Part shown: positions 1-60,206 of the stretch, piece by piece
Numbering within the stretch: position 1 is the first letter of the stretch
Layout: the number at the start of each line of letters is the position of its first letter
Assembly (NCBI GenBank): GCA_003971905.1
Contig: RSEE01000002.1
Location: forward strand, 186,001 to 250,000
DNA: 64,000 bases
Direction: 5' to 3'
DNA from: Moniliella sp. 'wahieum'
Lineage: Eukaryota
The notes under the pieces: generated by a model
Told to the model about the DNA's origin: nothing
What the model saw: the letters and a program-made list of their open reading frames with translations, nothing else
Database searches by the model: none
Position numbers and translations under genes: made by a program

Positions 1-198
1 CTCCCAACCTGCACGCTCCCAGCCTCAAGCTTTCGCCAGCGACATGCGGCTCCCTGCCCCTCCAGCCTGGATTCGGTGCGCTCGCTAATCGATAACTCAT
101 CGTTCTGCGTAGCTGTGCACAGGAAGCTTGAAGCGACAGCCACCATTGTGCGCACGAGGCTGTACATATCGTAGCCACAACGGAGGCGTGGTGTATAC

Positions 199-256
199 TG
201 AGTACTGAGTACTGAGTACTGAGTCCGCAGTTACTAGTTACTAGTAACTAGTTACT
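199..256. repeat. Heptamer arrays (TGA-GTAC)x3 then (TTA/TAA-CTAG)x3
   Basis: tgagtactgagtactgagtactgagt followed by agttactagttactagtaactagttac; 7-bp period, TNA triplet plus palindromic tetramer. Confidence 0.9.
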
Positions 257-730
257 GCGCATCTCTCCACTGATTAAATTAATGAACGTGAGCGTGTGAG
301 CACACGGCACAGGAGCTAATGCGCTGCCGCGCTGACGACGCCTGGAAGCTACCCAGGCAAACGAGGAGCAAACACGCTTCTGTGAGGCGTCGCTGCACAG
401 GCACCAGTGATGTATGATGCATGATGATGCGCAGCAAAGCGCGCAGACGCCGCACAGAGCGCACAAACAAACCCGCACGGAAACACAAGCGCAAATAGCG
501 TTGGGCCCCCAAATACATACCCACCCTACCCACTCTACTTGGCCGCCACTCCAACTGGGCTCTCGGAACCTCCCTGGTGGAGGAGACACAAATCCAAGAT
601 GCTGCTGATACAGCACGATACATCAGGCCATGGCGCAAGACTCGGCTACTCATCCTGAACTGCTGAATTCAACTGGCGCGCAAGCTAATAAACGAGAGCG
701 ACGGACCGTTCCTCCCACTCAGCCCGGGCA

Positions 731-807
731 CCTGAGCCTCAGGCCTCAGGCTGAGGCGCTGAGGCCCCTCTCTGAGATCCGAGAATCTGAGATTTGAGGA
801 TCTGAGG
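731..807. repeat. Degenerate TCA/TGA-GGCC, -GCGC and -GATC heptamer cluster
   Basis: cctgagcctcaggcctcaggctgaggcgctgaggcc...ctgagatccgagaatctgagatttgaggatctgag. Confidence 0.75.
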
Positions 808-2424
808 GTTCTGTGGCCTCACGCTGCCTCAGCCGGATTGCGCTGTAGCGGAATGCTCTGGCTGAGTATCAAGTGTACTTCTCACACGCTGAAGAGCAGT
901 TCAATGTTGCCCGCTCATCTGTTGGCGGTGGGCGGCGCATCGTACAACGCTTGAAGGAACTGTTGGGTGAAAACCCCCGCGCAATATAGGAGAGGAACTT
1001 TCTGTCGAAGCCATGGGGGGATTTGTTTATCATGGGTGTGGCTGAACCGGCGTAGCAGGGCGCAGTGCGTATATCGATTAGCACCCGCGGCTTCCACGGC
1101 GCCCTCAGCATCTCGATCTTGAAGCTTGAAGCGTATTATTCATCGATGATCATTCGATCATGGCCAATAGCATGGCGGGGAAAACGCATCCAACGATATG
1201 TGGATCCATCGCTTCGAGCTTCGCTGGAAGCTGGGCGTCCAAGGTGTTCCAACAAACGGAGAAGAGCCGGGTGGACCGGGGTGGTCGAGGGGGAATGGGT
1301 TTTCATTGGAAGTTCGAATTGGCACTTTGGCTCCAAGGCCACGCCACCCCACGCTGCGCCACCAACCGAGAGGCGGGGAAACGAGCTTAATGAGCAACTG
1401 GCTTCCTCGAGCCTGTGCACACACCACAGCAAAAGACGGGGTTCGAATGATAAATGAATTAATGAGTCAAGAGTCCAGCCATTGAACGATGTGGGTTGCA
1501 CGGTTTGTCGGGCTACACACGCAATTCCAAGCGGTAAAAAGCAGTAGTGTGCGCCCCGTTGCATCTATGCACGGGTGCTGGGGCGCTAGGCAGCACCGAA
1601 AAGGAATGCGTACTGAATACGGGGTGGTGGGAACTTATTTCCGGTTCCCCGTCCGCGCCACAGCGGTCATTATCATTGTGCCAGAGACCAAAATGTAACC
1701 CGAAATACGCCGCGCCAAGCCTGCGTTGGTCAGCTTTGCATGGCCCCAGGGGAGTAACTAGTAATTCCTGATCGATTATCGAGATTATCGATTATTTCAA
1801 GCTGCAGCAGGTTCAGTCCGGGGACGTTGTACACACCAGCGCCATGCCTAGCATGATGCATGACCACCTGTGGCCACCTGGCCTCACTAACCTCTTAACA
1901 TTACTATTGGAACCAGGTCTCGTACAGTGTCTTTAAAGCTGTGCCACGAGAGGAAAGGCTTGGAGCCAGTGTCTCCTCGACGGGTAAATATGTCCCACCT
2001 CCGTTACCGCACACGGGCAGCGTCAAGCGTTTCTGCGGACTGCACGCACGGCGCCTGTTGAGCTTGGGTTGCCTTGGATCTCAGAGACCTTTTAGGGTAC
2101 TTTTACGCTTGGCTATACAATCGGTTACCGCACTAACTCAGTACGCAGCTGTAGTCACTAGCTAGCCACTGGCATCGCCGGCCACGTGACGTCAAGCTTG
2201 ACAGTGCATGGCCTGAGCCTCAGCCCCAGGCGAGGCTGTACCGGTCACCGGCCTCACCGTCTGACCGCCAGAGGCTGGCTGTGGCTATCAAACGCGGCCT
2301 CCATTGTCCCCGGCAGAGAGATCGATGGATTAAGCAAAACCCACACCTGGGAGCCAGCTGGAGATCGAGGCAGCCGCACCCACACCAGCCGAGCCCATCG
2401 ATACAGCCCTTCCCTTGTCTCCTG

Positions 2425-2555
2425 CGTTGAATATTGACCGGTTGACCATTCAATTGAAAAAGTACGTTGAACGTGCCAGTCAGCAGTCAGCGCTCAGGCG
2501 CTCAGGGACCATCTTGAAGCTTGAAGCTTGATCGCTCAGGCGCGCAGATCTCAGG
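2425..2555. repeat. Mixed TNA-palindrome cluster (ATAT, CCGG, ACGT, GCGC, AGCT, GATC)
   Basis: tga-atat-tga-ccgg; acgttgaacgt; tca-gcgc-tca; ttgaagcttgaagcttga; agatctca. Confidence 0.75.
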
Positions 2556-3260
2556 CAAGGTCGCTCGCTATCCTCTCGACCTACCTGCCTCAACAGGGCA
2601 TTGTTGGACCACGTGCCGATCAAGCGCTGGTTGATGCAAGCGCTCAGCGCTCCTAAACGTAAACCGCACAGCTTGCATCCCCCCCTCCCTGCGCATCAAT
2701 GAAACTTGACTCTTGCAGCTTGGAGCGAAAACAGCGAGAAGCGAGAGATGTGCGAAGCGAAACCCGACATGCGCAGCGAACTGCAACCGAGCAAGGGAAG
2801 AGCAGCAGGGCGCGCAGCTTTGGCCAGCCAGTCACGCTGAGCGCTCAGGCGCCCAGGCGCCTCAGTGGACCCAGTGCCTGCCTCGTATAGGAGGACCGGG
2901 ACCTCTCACGCGCGCATGCATCATGAAGGCTTCGTCGTGTCCAACGTGCAGCTTCTCCCAACCCAGTCTCCGAGCGGCGCTAGTAAAGCTTAAAGCAAGT
3001 AACAAGTAGCCGGCCAAGGTACTCAGTACCTCCTGGCCATGGGCCTGTGCGGGGAAGACGGGATGGGGTAAACTGATCGTATCTATAGGCTTTCGAAGAC
3101 GGCCGTGGAAGGAGGCTGGCGGCCTTAAGAGATTGTCCGTCCCCACCCTACTGATGTTGCCCCCGATATCAACGGTTCGGGTCTACACTTTTCTTCCTAA
3201 AACAGGCCTATAGCCAACAAAAGGAAAGGGTACTAAGAGCCCGTAACCCAACTGCCCGCC

Positions 3261-3303
3261 CTGAGGCCTGAGGCTGAGGCCTGAGGCTCAGGCCTGACCG
3301 TCA
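3261..3303. repeat. TGA/TCA-GGCC heptamer array
   Basis: ctgaggcctgaggctgaggcctgaggctcaggcctga. Confidence 0.85.
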
Positions 3304-3441
3304 ATGAGCCGCGCCTCGATCCATCATCGGTCTGTGGGCGCCATCGTTTTTGTTCTTTTGTGCATGGGTTGCGATCCGAAAGAAGAGAGATGCATGAGAA
3401 TCCGGCGTGAGGCCCAAGGCTCAGGCTGAGCGCTCAGGGCG

Positions 3442-6966: not shown

Positions 6967-7477
6967 GGCCACGGCATTGCGCGGCAGAGCCTCCGCGGCC
7001 TCGACGTCGGGCGCGGGGCGGCGGGCGGCGCTGGGGGGCGGGGGGCGGGGGCGAAGCGGTAGGAACGCCCCTCGAGCTGTTCCGGGCGGAGGGGAGGCGT
7101 GGCGCGCGCTCCGGGGGACGCCATGGGTGCGGTGCCAGCGGCTGCTGCTGCCGGGAGAGAAGGCGGCGCGCTGGAAGAATGCGGAGGTGGTGGGTGGCGG
7201 CTGGCGTGGCAGCGCACAGACAAATTCAGCAGGCGTGCTCATGCGTCGCGCACCGGTGAGCTGCCATTGCGCGTGCTGTCCTACTGCTGTGCGCTGCGGT
7301 GCCTGGCAGCGGAGATGACTGGGCTCGTCACACCACCGCCATCACACATCACGTGCCCCTCGCAGGCGCCGCCACTGCTCCTGCGCCTGCTGTTGCCATC
7401 TGCCCTTTCTCGGGCAGACGACTGGACCACCAACCATTCGTCACTTGTCGCATCTCAGATCTCCCAGCACCGGTGGT

Positions 7478-7518
7478 TATCGATTATCGAATTATCGATT
7501 GCTCAGTTACGATCGATC
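7478..7518. repeat. TTA-TCGA heptamer array
   Basis: ggttatcgattatcgaattatcgatt...gatcgatc between two genes. Confidence 0.75.
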
Positions 7519-11240: not shown

Positions 11241-11336
11241 AGGGGAAGGGGGCCTATCGACCATACCCAGTAGCATCGGCACAAGCAAGGTCCGCTCGGT
11301 GGATATAAGATGGGGGAGCTGCCAATGGCGCTAGAC

Positions 11337-13865: not shown

Positions 13866-13867
13866 TT

Positions 13868-17569: not shown

Positions 17570-17668
17570 CTTAGCGCTCAGGCTCAGGCGCAGCCCTCGT
17601 GCTGAGCCCAGACGTGACGCGTGATGCATGATGGTGCTGACGCACTGAACGTACTGATGCACTGATGC
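17570..17668. repeat. Mixed in-register heptamer array
   Basis: tta-gcgc-tca; tga-cgcg-tga-tgca-tga (17615-17631); followed by ctga-spaced degenerate units. Confidence 0.75.
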
Positions 17669-18963
17669 CCCCAGGGCGGCTTACCTATCGAGCAGCGGAT
17701 CGGTTGATCTCTGTAGGCTCGTAGGCTCAGTTGAGCGCTTAGTGGGAGCAACAGAGCACGGAGTTGTGCGTGTACCAATCCACATCGCGATCCCCTCGAT
17801 CGGCTTTCTCAGGATCGTGTCAGGCCCCAGCCGAGCGCAGGCGTGCGCAGGCGCAGGCTGGGCCACACGAGGCCCCAGACGACCCATGTGTTGATCGCTG
17901 TCACTCACCGGTCATATTCATCCGTCCATCATCGATCCCATGTCTTCCTCGTACCAAGAGAGATGCCGATACCCTTTGCCTAACGCCCATCACCCTTTTC
18001 AACCGACAGGGCATTGCCCTGCACCAGACAGCCGCTCGTGAGTCGCTACTTGGCGCTTGGCCCTCCTGCGTATGGCTGGCGCCGTGGGATGGCAAATGGA
18101 GGCCCCTGGAAAGCCTGACACCTGCGGGAGGTGGTGCATGGTGAGCCGGTGAGGCCTGAGGCGACGGCAAAAAAAGGCATGGCAGACATGGCCTGCGAAA
18201 CACAACATCGACATACAACTACCGTAAACCGGTTACCATACCGGTACCTAGTAACTGGTCACTACCGTCCACAGCCACTTGAAACCTGTGGGAGGCAGCC
18301 TGGACGAGTCTGGACTTGGACAGCTGTCTGTATGGGCACCGACCTGAGCGGCCTATGGCTTGACGGCCTGACGCGTGATGGATGATCGATGACGGAGCTG
18401 GATTTTGAGTCTCAAAAAGTATCGTGTGCACCTGCATGTGGATGCGCCAGCAGGCGCTAGCTCGTCCTTTTCATGTCCCACCCAGGGGACAGGCCGCCGC
18501 ACTTTTCGTACCTGACGTGGACGCGATGTGTGTTTTGGAATCCGGGGTTCTCGCTCGAGCCGACAAGGGTTTGGCGTTTCCTGTGGAGGGCGAGCAAAGC
18601 ACCCTCGTTTCCAGGGGACATGGGGCAGCCGCTGGCAGCCCAGGGGCAGTCTTGCCTGCCCACACATGTGTCAATGTCAACCCGCTTACCGGGTTCATCG
18701 GCACCGGACCAGCCCAGCAACCCCGAAGCTCGGAAGCCAGACCCTTGCCCCCGCCCCAATATGAGTTCAACAGCTTAACGTTTAACGTTCAATGTCAACT
18801 CCGTACTCAAACACTCGGTACTCGACGTCCAGCCTTTCAACCCTTCCAGCTGGCGGCGACGATGCTGCTGACGCGATGGGGTACGTACAACCACCACCGT
18901 CCCTTCTACTGCGACAGACAAGGGGTACCCGGATGATTTGCTACATCGGTCGTCTTTCAAATT

Positions 18964-19017
18964 TCACTAGTCACTAGTCACTTGTCTAGTCACTAGTCAC
19001 TAGTCACTAGGTCACTA
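18964..19017. repeat. (TCA-CTAG)n heptamer array
   Basis: tcactagtcactagtcacttgtctagtcactagtcactagtcactaggtcacta. Confidence 0.92.
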
Positions 19018-19672: not shown

Positions 19673-20986
19673 TTAGTAGCGGTAGTGGTCCGCCTTGTAA
19701 GGCCCGTCAACGTTCAGGTCGAGGTACTTGGCCTGGGCGTCGGTGAGCTTGGTGAGCTGCACACGCAGCTTAGAAAGGTGCGCCAGGGCAACTTCCTCAT
19801 CGAGCTTCTTGGGAAGCATGTACACCTCGCCCGCCTTGTACTTGCCGTCGGTGTTGTTCTTCCACAGCTCAATCTGAGCAAGGGTCTGGTTGCAGAACGA
19901 GGCACTCATGATGAACGAAGGGTGGCCCGTCGCGCAGCCAAGGTTGACCAGACGGCCCTCGGCCAGGAGAATGACATGGCGGCCCGACTTCATCTCGAAC
20001 CGGTCAACCTGGGGCTTGATGTTGACAACTCCCTTGGCGTTGGCCTTGAGCCAGGCCACGTCAATCTCCACGTCAAAGTGACCAATGTTGCAGACAATCG
20101 CGTCGTCACGCATCGCCTCAAAGTGACGGCCGACGATAATGTCCCGGTTGCCCGTGGTGGTAACAAAGATGTCGGCGTACGACGCGACATTGTCCATCAG
20201 GTCAACCTGGTAGCCAGCCATGGCAGCCTGGAGGGCGTTGATGGGGTCAATCTCGGTAACAATCACACGGCAGCCGTAGCCACGCAGCGACTCGGCGCAG
20301 CCCTTGCCCACGTCACCAAAGCCAGCGACGACGGCCGTCTTGCCGCCGAGCATGACGTCAGTGGCGCGCTTGATGCCATCCACCAGCGACTCACGGCACC
20401 CATAGTAGTTGTCAAACTTGGACTTGGTCACCGAGTCGTTCACATTGATGGCAGGCAGCTTGAGCTCACCCTTGCGCGAGGCAATGTACAGGTGGTGAAC
20501 ACCCGTCGTGGTCTCCTCCGAGAGACCCTTAATGTCCTTGAGGAGCTCGGGGTGCTCGTTGTGCACCTTCCAGGTGAGGTCACCACCATCGTCGAGGATC
20601 ATGTTGAGGGGCTTGCCCGAGGGGAAAACGTCGTTCTTCAGCGTCTGCTCAATGCACCAGTTGTACTCCTCCTCCGTTTCGCCCTTCCAGGCGAAGACAG
20701 GGATGCCAGCAGCAGCAATCGCAGCCGCAGCGTGGTCCTGGGTAGAGAAGATGTTGCAGGACGACCAGGCAACCTCAGCACCAAGAGCGACCAGCGTCTC
20801 GATCAGGACGGCAGTCTGGATGGTCATGTGGAGGCAGCCAGCCACGCGCGCACCCTTGAGGGGCTGGCTCGGGCCGTACTTCTCGCGGAGCTGCATCAGG
20901 CCAGGCATCTCGCCCTCAGCGATGGTGATCTCCTTGCGCCCGAAGGCGGCAAGGGAGATGTCGGCGACCTTGAAGTTGGTGGACAT
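19673..20986 (-). CDS. SAH1: Adenosylhomocysteinase (S-adenosylhomocysteine hydrolase), intronless and intact
   Basis: [97 protein letters not shown]-terminal HYRY*; strong codon bias. Confidence 0.99.
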
Positions 20987-21072
20987 GGCTGTGGTGTGAG
21001 GGAGGGAAAGGCAGAGGAGGAATGGGGTGCGTGGTGGGGAGACGAGAGTGCCCGCGCACGGGACGGGCGGAA

Positions 21073-21805: not shown

Positions 21806-22902
21806 CAACAGTGCCCCAAGTTTTGCTCGCCTTGGACGAAGACGACCGGGTACCCCCATATTATGAGTCAGGGTCTTATCGTCTACATGGATCACTGGTC
21901 TCTCTTCCCCCCCGCCCTGTGCTGTTAAGGCTTGGCGACGTCTCGGACTTCCCGGGCAAAGTGCGTTCCATGTCAGCCCAGCGGGACCAAGCCGGCAGAT
22001 GGACGTCATGTCCGGCCACTCTCCCTGCCTTCAGTGTTGTGGGAAGAGATGATGCCGCGGCTACTTTACCAGACAGAGTTCATCTCTTTAGTTTTGACAA
22101 GAGCGCGTTCAGATCTCAGACCTGAAATGGGCATGAAGCTCAGTGGGAGGAGAGTAAGCACTGACGCTCTCCGGTATGGGTGCTTTGGCGGCAATTGTCC
22201 CGGTGACGCGAGGATGAACTGATCTGTATATAGCCTTGGTGTTCTCCGATTCGTCGCTGTCTGATGAGGCGTGCCCTGCAAGGCTTCTCGCTCGATGTCT
22301 GAACCACATATGAGATCGCATCAATTTGAGCAGGAACTTGAAGCTTGAAGCTTGACAGCTTGACCCCTGACCGCGGTGATGCGGCAGAGAATCACCTTTC
22401 TCATACACTCGCACGCAGCCAACTGCATCGCTACATCCTGCTTACTCTTGCTGAATGGTAAGGCGTTGCAGGTGACCCAGACGGAACGGGGGGAGGCGTT
22501 TCTCGTTCGTTCGAAACGCCGCGAGGTGTGAAGTGGAGGACGTGCTGGGGAACAGTACTGCACACCACAGATAAGGAAAGGAGGCGCTCGTGTCGAAAGA
22601 GGAGGGTGGGCTAGAGCATCAGGCTGGCTCGGTAGGCCATCAAGCTTCAAGGCTTGAAAAGGGCCCGTGGAGGTCACGCGGAGGGGCTGGCCCGAGCTGC
22701 TGGGTGTGGTGATGACGCCGTGTGGAGCTGCCTCAGGCCGCGCATGCGACCCAAATTAATAAGCCCTACTTTGTGGGGAGGGGTTCGAACCCTAGCAGAC
22801 CCTAGCGCTCGCAGCCGTTACGTCATCCGTTGCTGGCCCCGTGCAGGGGGTGAGCGTGGCCGCTGGGCTCCTGTGCGGATTCGCTGGGCCGACGCACCAG
22901 GG

Positions 22903-23414: not shown

Positions 23415-23448
<34 letters not shown>

Positions 23449-25220: not shown

Positions 25221-25287
25221 TGAAGCTTGAAGTTGAAATTTGAAGCTGAAGCTTGAAGCTTGAAGCTTGAAGCTTGAAGCTTGAAGC
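25221..25287. repeat. (TGA-AGCT)n heptamer array
   Basis: Five perfect TGAAGCT units at 25247-25281 plus degenerate units, including TGA-AATT-TGA. Confidence 0.95.
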
Positions 25288-25775
25288 AGCAAAGGGGAGT
25301 TGTCGCGCAAGTGTGTATCTGCATGTCTCACCTGTGTCGCGTACCTATGTCGCGTCCGGGTCATCCCAAGGGGATTGGGGGAGAGCGTGGTTGGGTCCAC
25401 ACGCTTAGGTATGCACGTTACACCACATTTTAAGAAGCTCTCCCGGGTATGTAATACGCGGTGGGCACTCTTGTGCACGTCCCCTCCCGATCGCAGTGAC
25501 TAGTGGTCCGGAATCGTGGCACGCTCTGTCGGTCGTTGTGACGGCGGGGGGGCGGAAGAAGAGAGGTGCTATGGGGCCTGTGGCGCAAAAAGGTGTATAG
25601 CAGGTGAGAAAGCAGGACGAAGACGATGAGGCTAACACGTGGATACGACGTGTCGTGATGCTGACGAATCATCTACTAGTCACTTTTCCTGCTGGTTGGA
25701 TTTGATAAAAGCGGTGCTTGAAGAGCTTGAAGCTTCCAAAGCTCCAAGGTCCATAAGGCGGCAGCGCGTTAGACG

Positions 25776-25902
25776 TTAGATCTTAGATCTTAGATGCGCT
25801 TTAATTTGCTCAAGATGCCTAGTCGGTAATCGGTAACCGGTAATCGGCAACCGGTAATCGATGATCGATGATCGATCGATGATGATGTCGATGATCGGAT
25901 CG
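25776..25902. repeat. Consecutive TTA-GATC, TAA-CCGG and TGA-TCGA heptamer arrays
   Basis: ttagatcttagatcttagat; cggtaatcggtaaccggtaatcggcaaccggtaatcgatgatcgatgatcga. Confidence 0.9.
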
Positions 25903-26813
25903 CCCCTTGCGTCGATCCACCGGCAAAATAGGCAAAACAACGCACTCGAGAGAGAGCGGGAAGCGGGCAAGATCGATCCGAGATCTGCGATCGGCCCGTG
26001 AGATCGAGATGGGGTATGGATTGCTCCTGGGGCGGCATCCTACACGCACCGCGAGCCGACAGGGTCTGCCCAGGGGGGCCGAGTGGCGGTGGCGGTGGTT
26101 GTGACAGACTGTGACTAGTAGTGACTGGGGCGGATTGCGGTGGCGGGGACTGGCGCTTGGGCTGGGTGGCTGGCACCGGCAGCTCCTGTGCGCCCACTCG
26201 CCACTAGATACCGACCGCCAGTACCGCCACCCAGCACTTGGCAGCCGCGCTGTCCAGTGGAGTAACGAAGAGCATGTGGCGACGAAAGCTAGTAGTGAGT
26301 TGGCGATTGACGTGCACGGGGCGGGCGGGGAGCGCGTACCGGTTGCGGTGCGCTGCGTTGTCACGCAGCAGTGGCCCAGCGGGCCGCTTGCGCATGTGCG
26401 GCTTACGTAGGCAGCGTTGGGTTGGCCGACGTGGATTGAATATTGACTCGGTGAAATTGAAACTGCAAGACGGTGGCGCAAAGCCCCAGCGAAAAAAAGG
26501 CATAGCAAGGGCGGTGCTGCGGCTGCACCTCGCCTCATGTCGCTCGCCTGAGCCATTGCTCGTTAGCCGGGCTCTTTCCTTGCTCTTCTCTTCGTCCCTT
26601 CGCTTCGTCCCCTTCTCGCCCCTCCCCTTCTTTCCCTCCCCCTCTCGTCCCTCCCGCCGCGCTGCAAGGATGCTGTGCGTAACTCCCCCGCCGCCGCCCC
26701 GCTGCCTGTCTGCTGACCCGTCTCGTCTTGGTGCGCTCCGCAGCAGCGACGCGTCCTCGCCCGCTGCCACGACCAGCACCACCCTCCCCTCCCCCTTCTC
26801 CTCCCACGCCGAG

Positions 26814-32800: not shown

Positions 32801-33942
32801 TGAGCTCGCGTATCTGGGGCCTGCTTCTACCTACACTCGATCCGCTCGCCCTCCCCCGTATCGGCGGGCCCCCAGCCGATACTGGGGTTGGGACTTGGCT
32901 TGACGCTGGGTCAACCGTCGGTTCGGTCCAACCGGCCCCCACTGCGGCTACGCAAGGGGGGGAGTGTATCGCCTGCTACCCAGACGGCTCCGTTGCCAGT
33001 GAGAGAAGGGACCAGACATTTGAGATCACTCCCTTTAGTACCTTGTCCCTTCACAGCGACGACGACATTGAGTGTCGTCTGGACGATATGCTGTCGCTCA
33101 CGGAAGACTTGTCGGATGGCCAGCACGACATTTCCGTTTCTTCCGCCCCGTTTGACGGGGCTCAGAGGTCATCTTCGCCTGCTCGGACCACGACGTTACC
33201 TTGCTCGGTATCCAACACGACGGTCACACCCTCTGCCTCTACCCACACCATCTTGCCCCTGCGGTCCTACGCCCCGCAAGGCAACGGGCCCGAATCTGCC
33301 AAGATGACCCCCGTCTCCTCGTCGCAAAGCCATTACCACCCGCCCTATCGGACTCGGGAACGGAGCAGGAGTTGGACGCCATCTCTCGCTCAGGGCATGA
33401 AGCCCCGCTGGGGAAAGATGCACCTTTGCCACCCTCGCCGCTACCTCCCTGGGAGATCTCGCCTTTACCCCCCCCACCTCCCGGGTGGGTCCCTCCGCCG
33501 CCCCCACCTGGCTGGCAGGCGGGGATGCCGCTCCCGCCCCTCCTCCTGGCTGGCCTCCCCTCGGTCCTACCCCGTTCGAGTCGCTTTCCACTTCGCCTGC
33601 CACGCCTGGCTCGACAGGGAGCGCGCCCAGCCCATCGCAAACCACGACGGAGGGTGCACGGCCCATCCTTTGCCCTCGCCCGGCCGTCAGTCAAGGTCCG
33701 TTGGGAGAAGGGCGATCGAGTGGGTCAAAGTCGCTACGAGGCCCGACGGGCAAAGTGCACTCGCCTTCGCGCGCTCGCCGCGTGCTAGCGGCCGCCATCC
33801 CGATCCGACTCAGTTCGTCCAGCTCTTCGGTGGCTAGTCCTCCTACTTCTCGCTTCACCGACGTGTCCCCCACCCCTCACTCGGCCTTGCCCACCAGTCC
33901 CCATTTGCGCAACACCCAAACGTTGGTTCATCGCCTGGTTAA
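26814..33942 (+). CDS. Very large, mostly disordered Ser/Pro-rich protein with a structured N-terminal domain; many frameshifts, ends approximate
   Basis: Intron GTACGT...CTGAC...CAG at about 27023-27116, then LKRGCLLPLYPTLGGQLYAISREYGLPSIGGLSVYL...LPIVGRIEW...WW, resembling an uncharacterised basidiomycete family from memory; about 6 kb of tiled plus-strand S/P/D/E-rich ORFs follow. Confidence 0.65.
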
Positions 33943-34389
33943 TGTCGTGCTTCCCCCGACACCGTCCTCCCTTTGCTCCACTTGGAACGAACGCCTAAGT
34001 TTTGCGTTTGCGTTTTGCCCAAATCCTTCTCTCCACCCGCACTCATGTACTCTCTTTGTTTCTATCGCACTTTGTCTCTACCGATCCCGAAACCATCCCT
34101 GTAGTGCCAAGTAGGACAGCGCTGTCAACGCGAACGTGCAGAGAGAATCAAAACTTGTAGAGCATGGCGCCAAGGGTATCACTAGCACTCTAGACTTCAA
34201 GTGGAACCTGACGCTGCACCAATTGATGGATCACCTTGTTGATCATGTGTTTCTCTGTTCCATAGATCAACTGTTGGTCGAGGCGGTGATTCAAGGGTCA
34301 CTTGATCCTCCCGCTCATCTCGCCTGCGGCATCGCCCACGCCACCTTCTGCGCCACCTTCTCCCCAACTGTCTGAACAGATCCCCCCTC

Positions 34390-35581
34390 ATCCTACCGTC
34401 CCGGTCAACTCTGCCGCTGCCTGCGTTTAACAAACGCACTCTCTGGTCCCTCTTCTCCTTTCCACTGCCAACTCTGCCACTGCCCGCCCACCCATTCCCC
34501 ACTCCTCATTCCCCACTCTCCCCCTTTCCTTTCAGGCAACCGTGTCATCTTGGCGATCAGAGCGGCAGCCGACCAAGGCGCGACCTTCTTGCGGGTGGTA
34601 TGCAGCACGTTCTTCCTATGTCGGCGTGGGAAGGAACGGACTGATGCATGGTGGCTGACGAAAGGAGGGCAGGGCTTCGTCCCGAGCTGGTCAAGTCGAC
34701 GTAGGAGGAACAGGTGCCTGCAGTCCGGCTGTATCGTCAATGAGAAGGTATACGAGTATGCGCTTGAGACTGCCAGGGGGATGGCACACGTTGGTCTGGA
34801 TGCTGGTGTGCTGGCGTGCTGGTTTGATGGTTTGGCAGAACCTTGCTTCCTGTGGTCTGGGGACCCTGCCAGGACCACGACAAAGGCAAAGAAGATATGA
34901 CCCTTCCCCCCGTCTCATTCGCCGCGCATCGAGGTGGACCGACGTCTGGTGGCGAGTGCCTCACTGCCCCCTACTGAGGACCCAGACCATGCACCGGACG
35001 TGGTCATTGCGGGTACGTGCTTGTGCTTGGCGCTTGGCGCTTCGCTTGGGTTTACGTTTGCTCCCGGCCATCTTCTTCATATTAAGCATCTCCCTTTGCC
35101 ATGCCTAGCCGATGCGATCGTCATCAGGGACAAGGAAATCCATGAGAAGCCGTCGGACCGGAACGATGCACTACGGAGGATATGCTGATGGACTTGAACG
35201 ATGGGTCGTGCGAGGGGGTGACGGGGATTGCGGTTGTCCACCCCATCCCTGTCAGTCCTGGATTCCATGTCAAGTACGTTAGGAGCTTCAAGGTTGGATG
35301 GTCGAGGGAGCTGTGGTTTGCTACTTACTGACAACGAACATACCCATTCACATGAGCATGGCCGAAAAGGCCAAATTCAACTTTGCTTGCGACCTGTCGG
35401 AGCACCTGTTGGCCTATGCCACCTCGGGAGAAGGAATGGACAAGGCGGGCGCCTTCTTCATCCAGGCCCTGGTGCGCTCTTCATTTCGACCATCGAGAGG
35501 GCAACTATAGTAACGTGGGGGATTTCCTGCTTCTTCCACTTCCTTCACGACTTGTTGGAGAACGATAAGATTGAGCTCTAG
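34390..35581 (+). CDS. Maf-like nucleoside triphosphate pyrophosphatase
   Basis: LPAFNK|..RVILA, YEYALETA, PDVVIA|ADAIV...IHEKP, AYATSGEGMDKAGAFFIQ, IEGNYSNV; several introns and frameshifts; start uncertain. Confidence 0.82.
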
Positions 35582-35744: not shown

Positions 35745-36628
35745 TTACCGGAACGGATTCGCCGCCGCTGGAGGCGGAGCCGGCTTCGAGTCGAAGTCGA
35801 ATCGCCTTGACTGAGACGGGCCTTGTTCTGCTTGCTCTGCCTCGGCACGGGGGGAAGCGCCCGAACGAGTATCAATGGTCCGTAGCGACGATGCAAGAAT
35901 GTTTGGCACAGGCAAGTCTTCTTGGGTCCGGATGGCAACTCGTTCCTTGGCGAATTCGCGCTCGGCCACCGACTTGGCAAAGTGTCCACCCATCTCTTTG
36001 GCCTCAACCATGGCGAACCGAGTAGCCGTCTCGTGTTCGGCGCGCAAAGCATAGTACGCACCCAGTTGGCGCTGGTACGCCTCGAGGAGCGACATGTTGC
36101 CCTGCTCATGCAGGGCCAGCACGGCTTGAATTAGGGGAACAACAGCAGACTGGTCAGTAGCCCGTTGAGCAGTGTGCGCCGCAAACGCAGCCCAGATCAA
36201 CGCACTCTTCCACATTCGGGTTGCGGCCATAGTCACGCAAGTTGGCGCCTTTGCGGCGCGTGTCGTACTGGGCGGCGACCTGCTCGTCGGGCTCGACGAG
36301 CGTTTGGGGCCGGCGGCTTCCCAAGGGTGGTCCTTGTAGAACTGCGTACGCACCCGGTCGGCCAGGTAGCGGATGGTAGGAAGGTTGTACATGTGGTTCC
36401 TGTGCAGCTTGCGCTCGATGCCATCGGTCTTGAGGCCCTGCTCGAGGCGGCGGGTGTACTCGAGGTGGGCGGCGGTCTTGCGGGCGCGGTTGTAGGGCGG
36501 AGGCAAGGGCGGGTTCTCGAGCGTCGCGCGCAGCCAGCTCGGCTCCTCCTTCACGTACCCGCCGCGCATCAGGCGCGAGACAAAGACGGGCACCTGGCCG
36601 CAATGTTGCGGCTTCCGTTGGCCGGCAT
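35745..36628 (-). CDS. RSM25: Mitochondrial small-subunit ribosomal protein mS23 (Rsm25)
   Basis: VSRLMRGGYVKEEPSW...ENPP, IRYLADRVRTQFYKDHPWE(ARRPQTLVE), YGRNPNVE, AYYALRAEHETATRFAMVEAKEMGGHF; one short intron near 36150-36200. Confidence 0.82.
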
Positions 36629-37688
36629 GGGGGGTAGCAGATGCGGGGCTGCGGGAGGAGGTTAGGCGGGGGGGACACACTTCACTAATACTTCTGCCCA
36701 GAGCCAGAACAGCACCAGCAGGACCTTCGCACCAGCCAGCCAGCAGCCCATTCCGCCGCTCGGCTGGCCGGTCCATTCCGCCTCTCATGGCAAATGTTCA
36801 ATTTCCCAGGTTAGTCGAACAGCCAGGCAGGTCAGCCCATGCGCCTTGTGTGGCATCCACAACCCACGCCATCTTTGCCTTGCCCCAACGAAAGCAGACC
36901 GTCGGTTGACTTGCTCGTACGCACCCATTGCATTGCCGATGTGCCGCCTCGAAGATGCAACCGCCAGTGCAGAAGGCAAACACCTTGTTCAGCTGGCCCA
37001 ACACACCTTCCTTGCGGCGCGGCGCTGCTTGCTCTCGCCACACTGCGCCCAGCGGCCGAGACGGCATCATTATCATTGCGCTCTCGGTGGTCGAGGGGAA
37101 CAGATACTGCGTGTGGCTTTGTCCCCATGCCCTGCATTCTCTCCTGCAGTGTGCCCTCACTAGTCACTGGCCCTGTGCCTAGTCGGCCTCCGATGTAGAT
37201 GCCTCTCTCTGTACCCAGACCCAAGTCTGCTCTAACCCATCACCTATTATCCTTCTGCCTGTCCGTGCTCCCTAGGCCAACATGCGGGGCTGGAAGCGCG
37301 GGCGCGGCTGAAGCAGCTGAGCCTCCGCCCCAAAGGCGCGAGGTGTTGGGGTTGGGCCGGGGGGCCTGAATATTGAATGAAGCTCAAACCCCAGAAGGGC
37401 CGACTTGGCACTGGGGGGGCCAGCGCGCGAACCGCGAGGGCAGCGGTGAGTGAGGCTGGAGGGAGGCCTGAGGCCTGAGGCCCAGTGCCATCGTCGCGTC
37501 GAAATGTCCCCAGGTTGGGTACCGCTGGGGCTGGATTTAGAGTGGGGTCTTGGGTTGCTGGCCCAGTGACTAGTGTCGGTCGTCTGTCGCAAGCCAGTGA
37601 CTTGCTCGGGAGCGCCACACCCCGCCCTCTGCCCAAGCACCCCCGTTCTCACCCCCGCCAGTCCATCTTCGCCGCCGCTCCAGGCACC

Positions 37689-45861: not shown

Positions 45862-45948
45862 CGATAATCGATAACTAGTAACTCAGCCAAGTAATCGATA
45901 ATCGATAATCAACGATCTCGACCATTGACCATCGATCATCATGCATCA
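45862..45948. repeat. Mixed TAA-TCGA / TAA-CTAG / TCA-TGCA heptamer cluster
   Basis: taa-tcga-taa-ctag-taa (45865-45881); gtaatcgataatcgataatc; atcgatcatcatgcatca. Confidence 0.85.
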
Positions 45949-47189: not shown

Positions 47190-47291
47190 CATGATGCATG
47201 ATGCGGACGCTGCATGATGCATGATGTCCCCTTTGATTAACTGATCCTGAGACCGGAAGAGGCCGTGAGCGCGTCACATGTCACACGTCAG
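47190..47291. repeat. TGA-TGCA and TCA-CATG heptamer cluster
   Basis: catgatgcatgatgc twice; tca-catg-tca-cacg-tca. Confidence 0.8.
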
Positions 47292-49378: not shown

Positions 49379-50945
49379 CCCCCCCCCCCCCCGCCACATT
49401 GATGGTCTACTTGCCGGTAGACGGGGACCTGTGGGCTGTCTCAAAAGTGTGCCAGTTTCCCTGTTCAACAACAATTTCCCAACTATGACGTGCCCATGGA
49501 CTTTGCCTTTCCATCGATATCTCATGTCGGTTCAGACGATCGGTCCCGTTCATCTCGATCAACTGAACCAGTGCCTCTGTCCGTTTCCACTCTGTCGCTC
49601 CTTTACCAAAGCCTGCATTCGCAAACCCAATCCTGGTCCAGTGTCTTGTTTTGTTCCTGCACTCGTATGACTAGATGACTGCTCCCAGTGGGGGGACCCA
49701 CATTCGAGCTAGGTTTTATGGGTAGTAGTAATCACCATCAATCCAATTGAGAGGAAACTGGGGGTTGGGGAGGTGGTGGTTGACACATTCTTGTAATGCA
49801 AGGAAGTTGATCGGAAAGCAGGAACAGGAGCAGGAACAGGAACAGGGGCTGCGACCTATGCTACGCCGCCAGCGTCCACTCTCAGCCACAATTCGGATAG
49901 CGAACAGCAACCGGGTGTCCATTTTCCAAACGCCGAATTAAACGCAACAAACAAGGCCCCGTCTACTGGTGCTCCACCAGTATGTTTCAAGTTTCATTGG
50001 TTCAAATGCATAGCAACTTGCCTCGCGCCGTGCCCCCAACCCCATTGCCATGGCGAGGCCTACTAGACCTTAAGCCCGAGCAGAGACACATTTTTGGTCG
50101 CCTTTTGAAGATGGCCGGGCCAAAGTCATGAATTAATGGTGCAGGTTCTGACCTGGGCTGGCTTGCTCTGGGACTTGGTATTCATCACAAATATATGAAG
50201 GTAGTGGCTAATACTAAAAGCTGTGTGGGAGCGAATAGATCGTATACTAAACAACCCGGCGTCTCTCTCGGCTTCGTGGCACTAGAGCTGAATCACCAAC
50301 TGGATTAGTCGGCTTGGTTGCGTGCTGAGAACGACTATGCACTGTGATTACATCTAGTATGTAAGCGAGATAGGGATGACCTCTCTTTTCGTATTCCTTC
50401 AAGCGGAGGAAAGAAGCGGTCAACTGACTGTCACGACGACTATGTCTCCTCTCCATCACAACTGTCGCCCGTCAAAAGAGCGTCAGTATAGGTTTGAACA
50501 TCATTTTGTACTCTCCCTCCAAAAAAACACCCACAACTACGAGTGATGTACTTGGCTATAATTTGCGTGAGATGCCGAAGAGGAAACGATCGCCCCGTAA
50601 CCAAATTAGCTGAACATTGTCACCTATGCTGGAGACGTAATAACTGTGAGGTATATTGACGCTATAACGCCTAGTCGACCAAACAAATACGAGTACCACC
50701 AATGGATGAAAATGTCTTCGTGTCCCTGTGTAGAAGTGGAGACTTTATACTGAGCGTACTGAGTGATATGAATAGAGACTCGAATAAGACCAAAATGAAA
50801 GGGGTCCAGAAGACAAGAAGACAAAAGAGAAAAGATTGGTTAAGAGAAGTGGAAGCCCCCCGTCTCACTGTGGCAGGGGTCTCTGGAGAAGCATGGTCCG
50901 AATTTCCCAGCGTTAATAGTGGGTCAAGGCGGGTTTGCCTGTAAA

Positions 50946-52940: not shown

Positions 52941-52991
52941 GCCTAAGGCCTAAGGCCTAAGGTTTGATATCTGAGATCCTGAGAGCTCTCA
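52941..52991. repeat. (TAA-GGCC)n array followed by GATC/GAGCTC units
   Basis: gcctaaggcctaaggcctaagg...ctgagatcctgagagctctca. Confidence 0.85.
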
Positions 52992-54673: not shown

Positions 54674-54903
54674 TGTCGCAATCGTTCGTAGGGAAGAAGC
54701 AAGATCAGAGGACATGGTGTGAAGCGGAAGAGAGAGGCGGAGCGAGACGCTCGGGGGACGAAGAAATTGGAAGTGGGAGAGAGATCAGCCAAAATATGAC
54801 AGTAACGCTGCGTCAAGCGATCGAGGGAAGTTTTACGCTCGAGTGGGTCAAGCATATAGAGGAAAGGACGCCGGCAGTGCGAGGAAAGGGAAAGACTTCG
54901 ACA
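54674..54903. mobile_element. Second copy of the short LTR-like repeat seen at 46543
   Basis: TGTCGCAATCGTTCGTAGGGAAGAAGCAAGATCAGAGGACATG...GACGAAGAAATTGGAA...GAGATCAGCCAAAATATGACAG aligns by eye with 46543-46674; TGTCG...CGACA possible termini; no TSD. Confidence 0.6.
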
Positions 54904-55679: not shown

Positions 55680-56624
55680 TCATTCAGCAAAGGGAGCACC
55701 CAGCTCCTCCACAATCTGCGCCGCGCTCTTGATAGAGTTGATCCCTCCTGCCGACTCGGAGACGGCCCGCGGTACCATGGACTAGGTCCCCGTCCAGCAT
55801 TCCGATCTTGTACCCGCTGATGCCTTGATCAAGTGCCTCGACTCCTTGGAGTGGCGGGACAATACGTGTCCAGCCAGCCGCGTCAGAACCGATTTGGATC
55901 AAGTCCTCCGATTTGACCGCCAAAATGGCGTCCTTGCACGCCTGGGCCGCCCGGCACTCATTCGACATGACAAACCGGGTGCCCGCGTAACACCTTCTGC
56001 CCAAGGGCTTTGACTGCTGCCGCGCTCTTAGTCGAGATGCCGCCGGTCGCCATGACAGGGATGGTGAGTGCCTCAGAAATCTGGGAAACAATAACCAACG
56101 TGCTGATGTTGTTGAAGCTCAGCGATCCCCCAGATTCGGGCCCGTGGCCACTACATGTCCACGCCAGCCCGCTCCGCTTGCAGTGCCTTCTCGACGTAGG
56201 CGACAAATCCCGCCAAACAACCGTAACACCTGCATCCTTGAACGTCTTGATCTCATCCAGGTGTTCATTCGCTTCGGTAAGCTGACAATGCACACGACAG
56301 GAATGTGCTCTTGGATAATGACGTCCCGCATCGCAGCGACGAAAAGGCCTCGGGGAGCTCCTCCAGGGATGCCGGGGATACGAGTGATGTAGTTGCAAGC
56401 AAAGGGCTTGTCAGTCAATTGCCTCACCTTGCGGACCTCCTCCCGAAGATGCTCGCGAACGGCATCTGGGTCTGTTAGTGGCCCATAATACCCGCTTGGG
56501 GCCGAGTGTGCCCAGACCGCCCGCATTGCTCACAGCAGCAACCAAATTAGCATCCGTAATCCACGAGGGGGGCTTGGATAACGGGGTACTTGGTGCCCAG
56601 GATTTCAGTAACGCGGTTGCCCAT
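55680..56624 (-). CDS. Nitronate monooxygenase / FabK-like FMN TIM-barrel oxidoreductase, bacterial type, intronless
   Basis: MGNRVTEILGTKYPVIQAP..WITDANLVAAVSNAGGLGTLGP, EEVRKVRQLTDKPFACN, VATGPESGG, IPVMATGGI, AGTRFVMSNEC, GGINSIKSAAQIVEEL...AE*; several 1-nt frameshifts. Confidence 0.9.
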
Positions 56625-56652
56625 GATGGCTGATGAAGAAGTTGAGTATTGG

Positions 56653-56721
56653 TTGAAGGTTGAAGATTGAAGGTTGGAGCTTGAAGGTTGAAGATTGAAG
56701 GTTGGAGCTTGAAGCTTGAAG
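56653..56721. repeat. Degenerate (TGA-AGCT)n array containing an exact 28-bp duplication
   Basis: ttgaaggttgaagattgaaggttggagc x2 (56653-56708) then ttgaagcttgaag. Confidence 0.92.
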
Positions 56722-56945
56722 GGGGATTGGTGAGGCGCGAGGGAATGGCACTGAGAACACGAGATGAAGAAGAAAGCCAAGCTGTTATTATATTGTGCTC
56801 TAGTACTACTCACCCGAGTTGGGCTGAGACTCCGTTGTGTCGGTGTTGAACCGCCGACATTGACATGCGCTGACATAGAGGCGCCTGAAGTTCATGTTCA
56901 AGGAGCACGGGGGCGCAGCACCGCAAGCGCCGCAGCTGCAGCACC

Positions 56946-57206
56946 ATGCATCATGCATCAGTCGCAATCACATTGGGCCTTGGGCCTCGGGCTTTGAAAT
57001 TTGAGAGGTTAATCGATAATCGATAGCCTGCAGTGTCAACATGTCAACGTAGTCAACACATTGATGCATGGTGCATGATGCGTACGCGTCCAGACGCCTG
57101 GGCTTGCTCTCGCGTCTAGGTGTGGCTTAGCGCCGATAGACCCTGGGATGGCGTGACTGGGCTCACCGGTCACCGGTCAGCAGCACCATGCATCATGCAT
57201 CATGCA
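56946..57206. repeat. Cluster of TCA-TGCA, TAA-TCGA, CATG and TCA-CCGG heptamers
   Basis: catgcatcatgcatca; taatcgataatcgata; caacatgtcaac; tcaccggtcaccggtca (57163-57179); catgcatcatgcatcatgca. Confidence 0.85.
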
Positions 57207-57498
57207 ATCCAGGGATGCTTGGCCCGCAGGTGGAACACAAAAAATTAATCAAGCGTATGACACAGGAGCTGCCTGCGGTAGTCCGCGGTAACGGGTCGAT
57301 GTCCTGGTCTGCGAGAGCAGGACAGAGTCTGGTAGCCGGTAGAGCCGTGGACGCGTCTAGCGGGTAGGATACAAATCACAACTATTGGCTTGCAGTAACT
57401 AGTAACGTACAGAGTGTTCCCCACAGGCGCCGGTACTGGATGCGGCTGAAGCGCTGGAGCTATAGTGAAGCTCTCTTTTAGATATGACATCCTGGAGT

Positions 57499-57700
57499 CT
57501 GATCGATCTGAAGATCTGAAGCTTCCTTGAAGCTTGAAGCTTGAAGCTTGAAGAGAAGAGGAGGCGGTGCCGCGGTGATCCTGCCGCAGAGGCAATCGAT
57601 CGATGATTGATGACGCGAATGATCGATGACCCATGACGCGTGACGGCTGGGAGTGGCGCGTGACGTCGATGATCGACGACGCTCAAGGCATTCATTGATC
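57499..57700. repeat. Cluster of AGCT, TCGA and CGCG heptamers
   Basis: tgaagcttgaagcttgaagcttgaag (57528-57553); tgatcgatga; tgacgcgtga. Confidence 0.85.
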
Positions 57701-58463
57701 GACGAAAACCACAGAGCAGTAGCGGTTAAGTCAATTAACGCCTAGCGATATACAGTCTGACGGTGGCAGCAGTGTATTAGATGTCTGAGCATATGTTTTT
57801 CCAACGTTGCGTATTGGCTTTTCATTCATGCTGAACAACATGCTTACCGCTTAATACCTTCTCTGTCTCCTTCTCTCTGCACACCAGTTGCGTTAACGAC
57901 CAGGTGTGTGTGACCGCCATTATGTGGCCTTCTGACAGTCTCTATATCGCCCAGCCACCACTAGCCACTCTCGCTCCCCCCTCCACTCCGAACCAATAAC
58001 CAGTAACTTCGTTCCCCGCTGGCTCGCGCTGATAGCAACCGTAGCGACCAGCACCGCATCGAGCTTCAAGCTTCAGGAGGCTGAAAGCGCGCCTGAAGCT
58101 TCAGCCTGAGAAGCTTCAGAGCCTCAAGGGCGGGCCTCATCAATCATCAATCATCACGCATATGCCACACAACCGCGGCACACACGTCGACGGAAAGCGC
58201 TCTGTTCTTGTACACGACGCCTCAGAATACCTGTTCTCCTCAAGACCGCTCATTATCGACTCAAGCTCTGGCTCTTCGGGGTGATAGTTGGCACTCGATA
58301 TAATTATTATGATGCACGATGGGGGGATTTTCACAAACTCTGCTCCTCCGCAAAACGGAAACGTTCTGAACTGATTTGTTCTTGCCAGATTCGGATGGAG
58401 TGCGCTGTTACATGTTACATCTCACGATACGGGGACGAAGAGGATAAGGCAGTCGACCGCCTT

Positions 58464-59280
58464 TGTTACGGGCCGCGTCGGATCCAAGATGGTCTGATCC
58501 AAGCTAAGGCCCGCCTGCTCTGCACCAGCCCAGTGGAGCGCGCCCCCAAGCCCAACCAAGATTGACGATGGTTGGTTGTACCCTGTACGGTGGTCCGAGT
58601 TGACATGCGTACGCGCGACAGCAGTCGCCTCCCGCCCAAGTCCAAGTCGGTGGTCAAACAAGACCACCAAGTATTCAGTATCTTTGCGACGTCCGTCGCC
58701 CGTCACCACTTATTTCCTTTCTCGATCGCGCCTGCGGCGATCAACCCCTCTTTTGACGTGCCTTTCTTTCTACACCCCCTTGGTGTCTGTTTCCCTTTTT
58801 TTGATTAAGCCTGTACCCCCGGTTGGTGGGGATCTTTTCCTCCACCTCCATTTCGTCCCCTTTCCCGCCTATCCTGTCCGACTCCTGCCCGTTTCCAGCC
58901 AATTGATCCAGTACAGGCAGCTCTTCTTGTTAGCGTCCGACTTCTCCTCCGACCTCGTCCTCCAGCCCTTCGTCAGTCCAGTCGCGCGAGCCCTCCTTTG
59001 GCGGCGGCGATTCCCAGTCTCAGTTAAGGCAGTGTTTGTCCGCCGCTGCCTCCTCCCGTCCCTAAGTCCCGGAGGCTTCAGACACGTTACTACGGCCCAA
59101 GCCGTGCAGACGCAGCCTTGCCACACGTGCAGCCGCCCCACCAAAGGCCTCTCCTCGTCCCTAGCTCCGCTCGAATACACCAACCAGCCCAAGCCCGAAA
59201 CTACCGTGAGTCGTCCTTCCGTCTCCTAAGGGATGTACCCCAAGAACCTGGGTGAGCCCCCTGGCGGCCCGCCCGTGACA
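58464..59280. mobile_element. Solo LTR (817 bp) with perfect 5-bp target-site duplication
   Basis: Starts TGTTACGGGC, ends GCCCGTGACA (9/10 inverted match), flanked on both sides by GCCTT (58459-58463 and 59281-59285). Confidence 0.85.
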
Positions 59281-60206
59281 GCCTTGGATTATCGATTCGA
59301 TTATATGACTTTGAGCGCATGACTCAGATATACACAGCATCCACGTATAGCGAGAGAGCGCCACTTCGACTATTTGGTAAACACCAAAAAGTATGGATAT
59401 GAGGGATTTTTTGATGATAGTATAAGAAGAGCCGCGCGTTTGTCATTGAGTGGAACGGAGGTAAATATACACGTAAAACGCTGGAAGTGACTATGGTGAA
59501 CGACTGTACCGAAAAAAGCCGAAATAATGTGAGCAGAAATCCGGAGAGCAAAACGGTAGGGAGGGCACACACAATACACAACTATTATGAATGTTGGTGG
59601 TGTTACCTCTGTCACGGGCCAAGACGGGCTGGCAGATCGCAGCTTGACGGGCCGCACCAAAGAGAGGTGCTGTCGATCCGGGGGCGACCCAGATGGCTCA
59701 TCAGTATGTATAACTTGGAGGAGATAAACTTCGTTCATTGATATCATTACCGCACCTTTTCTAGAGAGAGACCGGGTATGAGAGTAGGAACCCAAAAGGA
59801 AGAATTCTTGCGCGTGTGAGTGGAGGACCTCTGTGAAGAAGAAGAGCAAAATGCAATGGCGATGGTGGTGGTTGATTTCTAAGCCTCACATGCCACACCT
59901 GGAAGAGACATGGGTTCAAACAAACCGGGGTGTAATGCACACGTGTCGGCTTCGGGGGTCAAAGGGGGAACGCAAGGTGCTTATATATAGGCTCTAGGCC
60001 TTAGGCCTTGTATTAGGAAGCCTCTCGGCCTTTCAGTTAATTTCATGCAGTTAATTTCATGCATACGAACGAATGCATCACTTTCAATGTTGCAATGAAA
60101 TTGCCTGGGCACGTGAATGTTAAAAAGTCAATCGCGTTTCTACTGAAATCCATTCAAATCATCACATTCAAGGCGCACAGAACTTGTAACGCCACCATCG
60201 CTCGCC

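Follow-up and report, generated by a model that had tools for sequence, protein, structure and literature searches.

In a 64-kb window of fungal nuclear DNA from Moniliella sp. 'wahieum' (contig RSEE01000002.1, positions 186,001 to 250,000; G+C 58.7%), short tandem arrays with a period of 7 bp largely follow a single grammar, in which a T-N-A triplet (TNA) alternates with a self-complementary tetramer, here written X-Y-Y'-X' with primes for complements. Unless stated otherwise, counts refer to that window, and its positions are numbered from 1. Our findings show that the palindromic tetramer is composed of one half of the original flank of the triplet and one half of an inverted copy of this flank. 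The minimal event converts NAXY into NAXY + Y'X'T + NAXY and always adds 7 nt, of which four are a direct copy and three an inverted one. At a T-N-A site, ab-TNA-XY thus becomes ab-TNA-XY-Y'X'-TNA-XY, the inserted Y'X'T being the reverse complement of A-X-Y, and the mirror product ab-TNA-b'a'-ab-TNA-XY arises on the other strand. We consider it probable that the arrays are scars of a lineage-specific and site-directed insertion process, rather than unrelated microsatellites or a protein-binding motif, and iteration of a flank-templated duplication-inversion at TNA is the likely event behind them.

The grammar had been proposed in a first-pass annotation of the same DNA, and the unit given there for each of 19 coordinates is present at all 19 of them, both in our list of chains and in the sequence. 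Exact period-7 arrays of at least 14 nt number 49 (one of them a poly-C run), compared with 10 arrays at period 8 and three at period 9, and a parse as TNA plus a 4-bp palindrome fits 31 of the 49. Expected word counts were taken from Markov simulations (order 1, 3 and 5) rather than from exact shuffles. Words of the form T.A-palindrome-T.A (10-mers) occur 105 times, where 7.2, 6.0 and 15.9 are expected at the three orders, whereas T.A-nonpalindrome-T.A stays near expectation (114 versus 83-107); the palindromic share of T.A-4-T.A sites is 48% rather than 6%. The count of palindromic against non-palindromic tetramers between TNA triplets, which the annotation had suggested, hence reveals an enrichment of the palindromic class over the 6-16 expected. 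In the companion comparison of spacer triplets, none of the other 15 outer-base pairs is comparably enriched, C.G alone being mildly raised (45 versus 24-30). Spacing is equally constrained, with palindromic spacers of 4 nt enriched about 18-fold, those of 2 and 3 nt 1.5-1.7-fold, and other lengths near background.

The 105 units form 82 chains, of which 66 contain one tetramer, 11 two, four three and one five; chains were defined by perfect matches, which biases them against old events. As had been claimed, most palindromic tetramers are in use: 15 of the 16 occur, AGCT being the commonest (23 units). TGA and TCA together make up 139 of the 187 triplets in chains, N thus being mostly G or C, and this usage (G/C to A/T, 61:21 in chains) equals the background seen at TNA sites generally (1695:532). 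Usage of XY is likewise broad and close to that of the dinucleotides following TNA generally, with AG up 2.45-fold and TT, GT and TA low. Once chains are masked, single TNA-centred 7-bp palindromes are found 144 times against 150 expected; because these isolated palindromes are at expectation, the signal must lie in the duplication event, and no word is favoured as such. Two other readings of the unit are equally valid, namely one free base next to the 6-bp palindrome A-X-Y-Y'-X'-T, and the 7-bp odd palindrome Y'X'-T-N-A-XY. Together, these results uphold the earlier proposals that the common feature of the arrays is symmetry and spacing rather than sequence, and that a dedicated mutational process is to be preferred over a transcription-factor motif.

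Where does the tetramer come from? The two bases flanking a chain are identical to the adjacent half-tetramer at 77 of 164 chain ends, whereas permuted flanks match at a mean of 13.2 ends and a maximum of 29 in 5000 permutations; when the wrong half-tetramer is compared instead, 14 of 164 ends match. Matches at one of the two flank bases are also in excess (48 of 87 versus 40% expected). Past the outermost TNA, the match extends over 0, 1, 2, 3 and 4 nt at 33, 12, 22, 8 and 7 left ends and at 30, 12, 22, 10 and 8 right ends. The ends of arrays are thus quantised, with values of 0 or 2 nt, and those scored at 1 or 3 nt are as many as chance lengthening of these two classes would give. Of the isolated single chains whose two triplets share N (32 in all), 20 match the flank on one side, four on both sides and eight on neither, and matches at both ends are found in eight of the 16 chains with two or more tetramers versus nine of the 66 with a single one. 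Only three chains hold two different tetramers, and all three read ab-TNA-b'a'ab-TNA-XYY'X'-TNA-XY, so that each tetramer mirrors its own outer flank, with the presumed original ab-TNA-XY in the centre. Because the tetramers match their own flanks in this manner, a tetramer built from transposon ends would be unexpected.

The base requirements of the event can be deduced from the 11-mer N-Z-X-Y-Y'-X'-Z'-N-Z-X-Y, counted on both strands. With Z = A it occurs 127 times against about 1.5 expected; the other three bases (C, G and T) yield 12 occurrences between them, about 7 being expected. Immediately before the first N, the 38 isolated events have T 26 times, G six times, C four times and A twice, with T at 18.5% in the background. 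These counts imply that the A is essential, and that a T in front of N is not required but is preferred about tenfold. Even where the first triplet is V-N-A, the second one is T-N-A, and its T must therefore be the complement of the A and not a copy of the base upstream. Of the 105 pairs of neighbouring Ns, 89 are identical, 11 complementary and five neither; about two complementary pairs are expected by chance, as estimated from base frequencies, and such flips are what a longer inverted tract inside a palindromic array would give. On balance every event adds 7 nt and repeats 4-5 nt directly, which fits equally a 7-bp duplication with 2-3 nt of one copy replaced and a 4-5-bp duplication with added bases. 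Plain TNA-centred 7-bp duplications with a non-palindromic junction are found in six windows versus 0.07 expected; they are not used as support here, since T.A units among the 18 non-grammar period-7 arrays match composition.

Is the grammar a general property of heptamer repeats? As an outside control we used metagenome contigs chosen for (TGAAGCT)3, which provide at least 121 loci and 488 kb among the matches listed. The loci among these matches contain three further grammar arrays versus 143 other period-7 arrays, and their 89 non-AGCT chains behave as expected by chance, with the same N in 28 of 89 and a flank match at 22 of 178 ends. No homology between the listed loci and the window was detected beyond the repeat itself. 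Given this chance level in the listed metagenome loci, the grammar belongs to this genome and not to heptamer repeats generally. (TGAAGCT)3 is itself common in public metagenome contigs, where at least 121 stretches with a G+C of 28% to 67% carry it. Four of the loci, L034 (1996-2012), L062 (685-704), L100 (438-451) and L091 (479-495), show one further grammar array or chain each, the motifs being TCA-GGCC, TAA-CCGG, TCA-GATC and TCA-GCGC-TCA-GGCC-TAA, and their source organisms might possess a weaker version of the process at work in the window.

Along the window the 82 chains are strongly clustered and reach a density of about 6 per kb of non-coding DNA. The split into coding and non-coding DNA is based on open reading frames (ORFs) with a Pfam match only, codon-bias gene finding being too weak for gene models. 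Chains are absent from the 5.1 kb that is matched by Pfam domains, and the Pfam-positive ORFs, 11.5 kb in total, contain four. The chain-free 4-kb bins comprise three in gene-dense stretches and the last bin (60-64 kb), and at least the stretch from 34.1 to 35.7 kb is devoid of any chain.

How might a TNA site be turned into such a unit? We envision a scenario in which a staggered break is made at the site, its ends pass through a hairpin that is opened 3 nt from its tip, as in the formation of P nucleotides, and the products are sealed by end joining. A hairpin intermediate is suggested because its classic mark is a direct duplication to which flanking sequence is joined as a short inverted copy, and hairpin or fold-back repair at TNA sites, the second candidate put forward in the first-pass annotation, fits a flank-templated event of this kind. 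Both ends would carry the 7-bp sequence ab-TNA-XY, as after a target duplication, and each would close into a hairpin; opening 3 nt from the tip would then leave the overhangs A-XYY'X'-T and A-b'a'ab-T. Direct ligation of one strand and trimming of the other would give exactly the two observed products, with a net gain of 7 nt. The product that retains both overhangs, with two adjacent palindromic tetramers, is not enriched in the window (1 versus 0.47). The outcome of a first event would be a symmetric site, Y'X'-TNA-XY, whose identical self-complementary overhangs might favour a further gain of 7 nt. Since each event creates a symmetric TNA site, events can repeat and thereby build arrays, and a preference for symmetric sites would explain why both-end matches are so much more frequent in the longer chains than in the single ones. 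Later slippage may have contributed in part: some growth by slippage and by larger duplications is evident, for example at 56653-56721, where re-duplication of a degenerate array has produced 2.5 copies of a 28-bp unit with 97% matches.

As to the agent, a transposon that excises through hairpins appears somewhat ahead of a host nuclease. It would act by repeated insertion and excision, with 7-bp duplications centred on TNA and with hairpins on the flanks, in the manner of hAT- or MULE-like elements, and is by analogy the better-precedented option. The flank hairpins of hAT, MULE and Transib elements share their chemistry with V(D)J coding joints, which bear P nucleotides. Such hairpins have been documented for the excision of hAT, Transib and MULE elements (PMC5499845), the footprints left by Ac/Ds in Candida albicans contain flank-templated palindromic P nucleotides of up to 3 nt (PMC5873905), and hAT7 and Kyakuja elements with 7-bp duplications occur in basidiomycetes (PMC12730594). 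The scars in the window resemble hairpin-type excision footprints (hAT such as Ac/Ds, MULE and Transib) in the short palindromic insertion templated by the adjacent flank, and may also share with them a retained target duplication and end joining after hairpin opening (PMC5499845, PMC5873905). They are distinguished from such footprints by a single dominant geometry (3-nt arm, net gain of 7), by the T-N-A site, by iteration into arrays at several per kb, and by the lack of any element or transposase seen in the 64 kb. The usual hAT target, with T and A four bases apart, also differs from T-N-A. More tentatively, an endogenous activity, for which a domesticated transposase is a candidate, might nick or cut T-N-A, resolve the ends via a 3-nt hairpin and so write 7-bp near-palindromic units into open non-coding DNA. 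Such a process would be self-reinforcing and would represent microsatellite birth without a resident mobile element.

Several observations speak against a hairpin-mediated event, or against a transposon as its agent. No 2-nt flank match is present at either end of 22 of the 82 chains, of which only about 6-7 are expected to be chance chains; some of the non-matching chains are visibly decayed longer arrays, but not all are accounted for in this way. The eight of 16 multi-tetramer chains that match at both ends require a pre-existing symmetric site or another route of growth. The 3-nt length of the inverted arm rests on 12 isolated V-N-A events, and the direction of change, gain rather than loss, is inferred from one 64-kb window. 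About 6 chains per kb of non-coding DNA would call for very many cycles of insertion and excision. No transposase domain was detected in the 182 ORFs of the window that were scanned (32 + 150), and a search of the window for an inverted-repeat element with a TNA duplication returned only chance-like pairs and array-to-array matches. Furthermore, experimental hAT footprints are heterogeneous, with 28 types among 128 events and the top two accounting for 41% (PMC5873905), whereas one geometry dominates here.

Alternatively, the unit may be written during replication by template switching, without a double-strand break and without a transposon. Here, synthesis that starts or stalls at a nick 5' of the A would copy A-X-Y and turn on the displaced or nascent strand to copy Y'X'T; the terminal T would realign on the T before N, N-A-X-Y would be copied once more, and the resulting 7-nt loop would be fixed. 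This route yields exactly the observed product and needs no element, in agreement with none being seen in the window. The retention of N in 89 of 105 pairs would follow from its being copied anew from the original template, the second T would be the complement of the A even at V-N-A sites, and the roughly tenfold help from a T before N would reflect 1 nt of realignment homology. Template switching does not explain, however, why A/T is used and not C/G, G/C or T/A, nor why the inverted arm is constantly 3 nt long (4-nt spacers being enriched about 18-fold and other lengths near background), and it must still postulate a site-specific nick. We therefore regard it as unlikely, albeit as an alternative deserving serious attention. 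Quasi-palindrome and template-switch mutations, and snap-back templated insertions in end joining, also generate short inverted copies in one step; their length varies, however, and they are not bound to a particular trinucleotide, whereas the events in the window always add 7 nt and are specific for TNA.

Ordinary microsatellite dynamics, in which self-complementary chance proto-repeats form slipped hairpins and expand by slippage, would be in line with the folding of the arrays into hairpins of 6-bp blocks split by single mismatches (z -1.9 to -4.6) and with the existence of degenerate and higher-order copies, such as the 28-bp unit; TTG-type arrays with palindromic tetramers moreover suggest some growth without TNA. 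Yet slippage cannot make an inverted half-tetramer at a single site, as seen in the 38 isolated events. It also fails on the exclusive A/T requirement, since G/C-flanked palindromes would pair better, on array ends quantised at 0 or 2 nt, where arbitrary phase is expected, and on the prevalence of one grammar in 31 of 49 period-7 arrays, where any motif should do. Nor does it predict the ratio of three grammar arrays to 143 others in the listed 488 kb of other genomes. Ordinary heptanucleotide microsatellites share the tandem 7-bp period with the window, whereas the rest of the grammar is absent in the listed metagenome loci. As a source of the arrays, slippage is thus very improbable.

About equally improbable are excision scars of a PIF/Harbinger-like element, the first candidate of the first-pass annotation, in which a 3-bp TNA target duplication encloses 2 nt from each inverted end. 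Such scars would account for a direct TNA repeat around a 4-bp palindrome, for the fixed 2+2 geometry and for the same N in 89 of 105 pairs, and the GG...CC termini typical of Harbinger-type elements would give the common GGCC unit. Excision of these elements is, by contrast, mostly precise. Their target, like that of the IS5 group, is a quasi-palindromic T-N-A that is read symmetrically, as it would be in the window, and Harbinger relatives make 3-bp duplications (PMC12730594). However, the proposal is contradicted by the origin of the tetramer, which should be independent of the flank when derived from an element but matches it at 77 of 164 ends, against about 13, and in three of three mixed chains. 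Furthermore, 15 of the 16 tetramers are used at frequencies near those of the dinucleotides following TNA, rather than in a few families; V-N-A sites give T-N-A and not a V-N-A copy as the second triplet; and the direct repeat spans 4-5 nt (N-A-X-Y), not TNA alone. No such element is present in the window, where the catalogue of inverted-repeat elements with TNA duplications that had been suggested came back empty. Tc1/mariner footprints (TA, then 2-3 nt from either end, then TA) are a comparable scar of fixed geometry, with a short palindrome between two copies of the target. Their palindrome derives from the element and is constant per family, whereas that of the window varies and is taken from the flank, at a TNA target in which N is mostly G or C.

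Least probable of all is retention of the arrays by selection as cis-elements, whether as binding sites, for nucleosome exclusion or as a source of stop codons in every frame of untranslated regions: the arrays occur exclusively in non-coding DNA in the vicinity of genes, each TNA is a stop on one strand and period 7 places stops in all three frames, but the tetramer is free and drawn from the local flank, N is at background, many arrays are decaying by point changes, and there is no conserved word that a protein could recognise. Models based on bZIP-type half-sites, on telomere-like repeats, or on a topoisomerase or Spo11 stagger were rejected for a misfit in spacing or in direct-repeat geometry.

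A search of the literature in full text returned no description of the grammar or of the rule. If a flank-templated duplication-inversion at TNA operates genome-wide, then one simple rule covers a large share of the intergenic repeat content. The arrays would then be a clear case of microsatellite birth by break repair and not by slippage. The signature NAXY to NAXY-Y'X'T-NAXY would be searchable in any genome and could serve to date or count events and to find the responsible enzyme. Each added unit bears a stop codon and a 6-bp palindrome, and the process would thus show how promoters and untranslated regions are reshaped.

Table 1. Arrays, array clusters and Pfam-supported genes in the 64-kb window
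Position	Strand	Feature	Remarks
197..256		Two adjacent arrays: (AC TGA GT)x4, then (AG TTA CT)x4 with centre of third unit flipped (TAA)	2-nt half-tetramers at both ends of each; DNA fold -14.2 kcal/mol, z -4.6
736..765		TCA/TGA-GGCC array	3-, 4- and 5-nt spacer variants (GGC, GGCC, GGCGC)
1118..1149		TGA-AGCT units, then TCA-TCGA-TGA unit	
1755..1794		TAA-CTAG-TAA, then TGA/TTA-TCGA units	
2428..2531		Cluster: TGA-ATAT-TGA-CCGG; simple AGTCAGC duplication, then GC-TCA-G units; TCA-GCGC units; (TGA-AGCT)x2	
3260..3297		TGA/TCA-GGCC array	One-base-short units (GGC)
~3.4-5.6 kb	minus	Sulfate permease with cyclic-nucleotide domain	Pfam match
7477..7500		TTA-TCGA array	
12.2-13.8 kb		WD40 protein	Pfam match
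17613..17633		Two-tetramer chain CG TGA CGCG TGA TGCA TGA TG	Fits original CG-TGA-TG site reflected each way
18955..19012		Chain TT TCA AATT TCA CTAG TCA CTAG TCA CT, then second TCA-CTAG array	Fold z -4.1
19679-20995	minus	S-adenosylhomocysteine hydrolase (SAHH)	Pfam match; appears intron-less
22337..22355		(TGA-AGCT) array	
25221..25287		Longest array: TGA-AGCT, including one TGA-AATT unit; two units one base short	TRF 9.9 copies; fold -13.9 kcal/mol, z -2.7
25767..25897		CGTTAGA x2 (plain duplication), then TCTTAGA x2 (palindromised); then TAA-CCGG / TCGG / TCGA and TGA-TCGA units	
35745-36788	minus	Mitochondrial ribosomal protein mS23 ORF	Pfam E 4.8e-29
37463..37482		(TGA-GGCC) array	
~39.8-43.8 kb	minus	ABC transporter	Pfam match
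45863..45948		Chain GA TAA TCGA TAA CTAG TAA CT, then (TAA-TCGA)x2 and TCA-TGCA-TCA	
47190..47283		Two TGA-TGCA arrays and TCA-CATG-TCA	
52941..52962		(TAA-GGCC) array	Fold z -2.0
56651..56722		Degenerate TGA-AGCT array	AGGT, AGAT and TGG variants
56945..57025		CCA-TGCA-TCA-TGCA-TCA, then GGCC-TTG units, TGA-AATT-TGA, TAA-TCGA units	First triplet not TNA
57163..57206		(TCA-CCGG)x2 and second CCA-TGCA-TCA array	
57526..57553		(CT TGA AG)x4	
58062..58103		TCA-AGCT-TCA and 10-bp palindrome TGA-AGCT-TCA	
58406..58420		TG TTA CATG TTA CAT	
59995..60009		CTA-GGCC-TTA-GGCC-TT array	First triplet not TNA
		Som1 ORF	Pfam match
		Nucleotidyl transferase ORF	Pfam match
	minus	Nitronate monooxygenase ORF	Pfam match

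Several arrays depart from the strict unit (Table 1). Spacer variants of 3 and 5 nt cluster in GGCC and GCGC arrays. Period-8 relatives at 750-765, 2490-2506, 2841-2861 and 57505-57521 consist of TGA or TCA plus a 5-nt spacer (for example GGCGC), or of AGATC plus TGA, and may represent joints that are one base longer. At 35025-35042, 56973-56996 and 18050-18059, GCGC and GGCC alternate with TTG or TCG instead of TNA, in some cases with flank matches; these may be mutated arrays that kept growing or the result of low-rate events at half-sites. The segments 56936-56960 and 57181-57206 have their left flank and first unit in common (GCAGCACCA-TGCA-TCA...), and it seems that a segment of about 25 nt including the array start has been duplicated about 245 nt away. 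The array with the 28-bp unit is located upstream of the minus-strand nitronate monooxygenase ORF, no more than about 100 nt from its likely start. A G-rich period-7/17 tract (GGGCGGC-like) at 7008-7053 and a C14 run at 49379-49392 are unrelated to the grammar.

Positions 26204-34111 on the plus strand hold about 8 kb of long overlapping ORFs with neither a Pfam match nor a chain, possibly one large gene with introns or frame changes, and C/T-rich low-complexity repeats occur within this run at 26585-26930. The mS23 ORF had no homologue at E<=1e-10 in a word-indexed protein search, despite its clear Pfam match. In the homologue listing, SAHH shares 85% identity with its Tilletiaria anomala counterpart and 83-84% with Tilletia, Jaminaea and Malassezia entries, with no named entry above 85%, which places the source among the Exobasidiomycetes (Ustilaginomycotina). 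The protein is 96-97% identical to two proteins from assembled public runs, encoded on contigs of 5.3 and 6.7 kb, and close relatives have thus already been sequenced.

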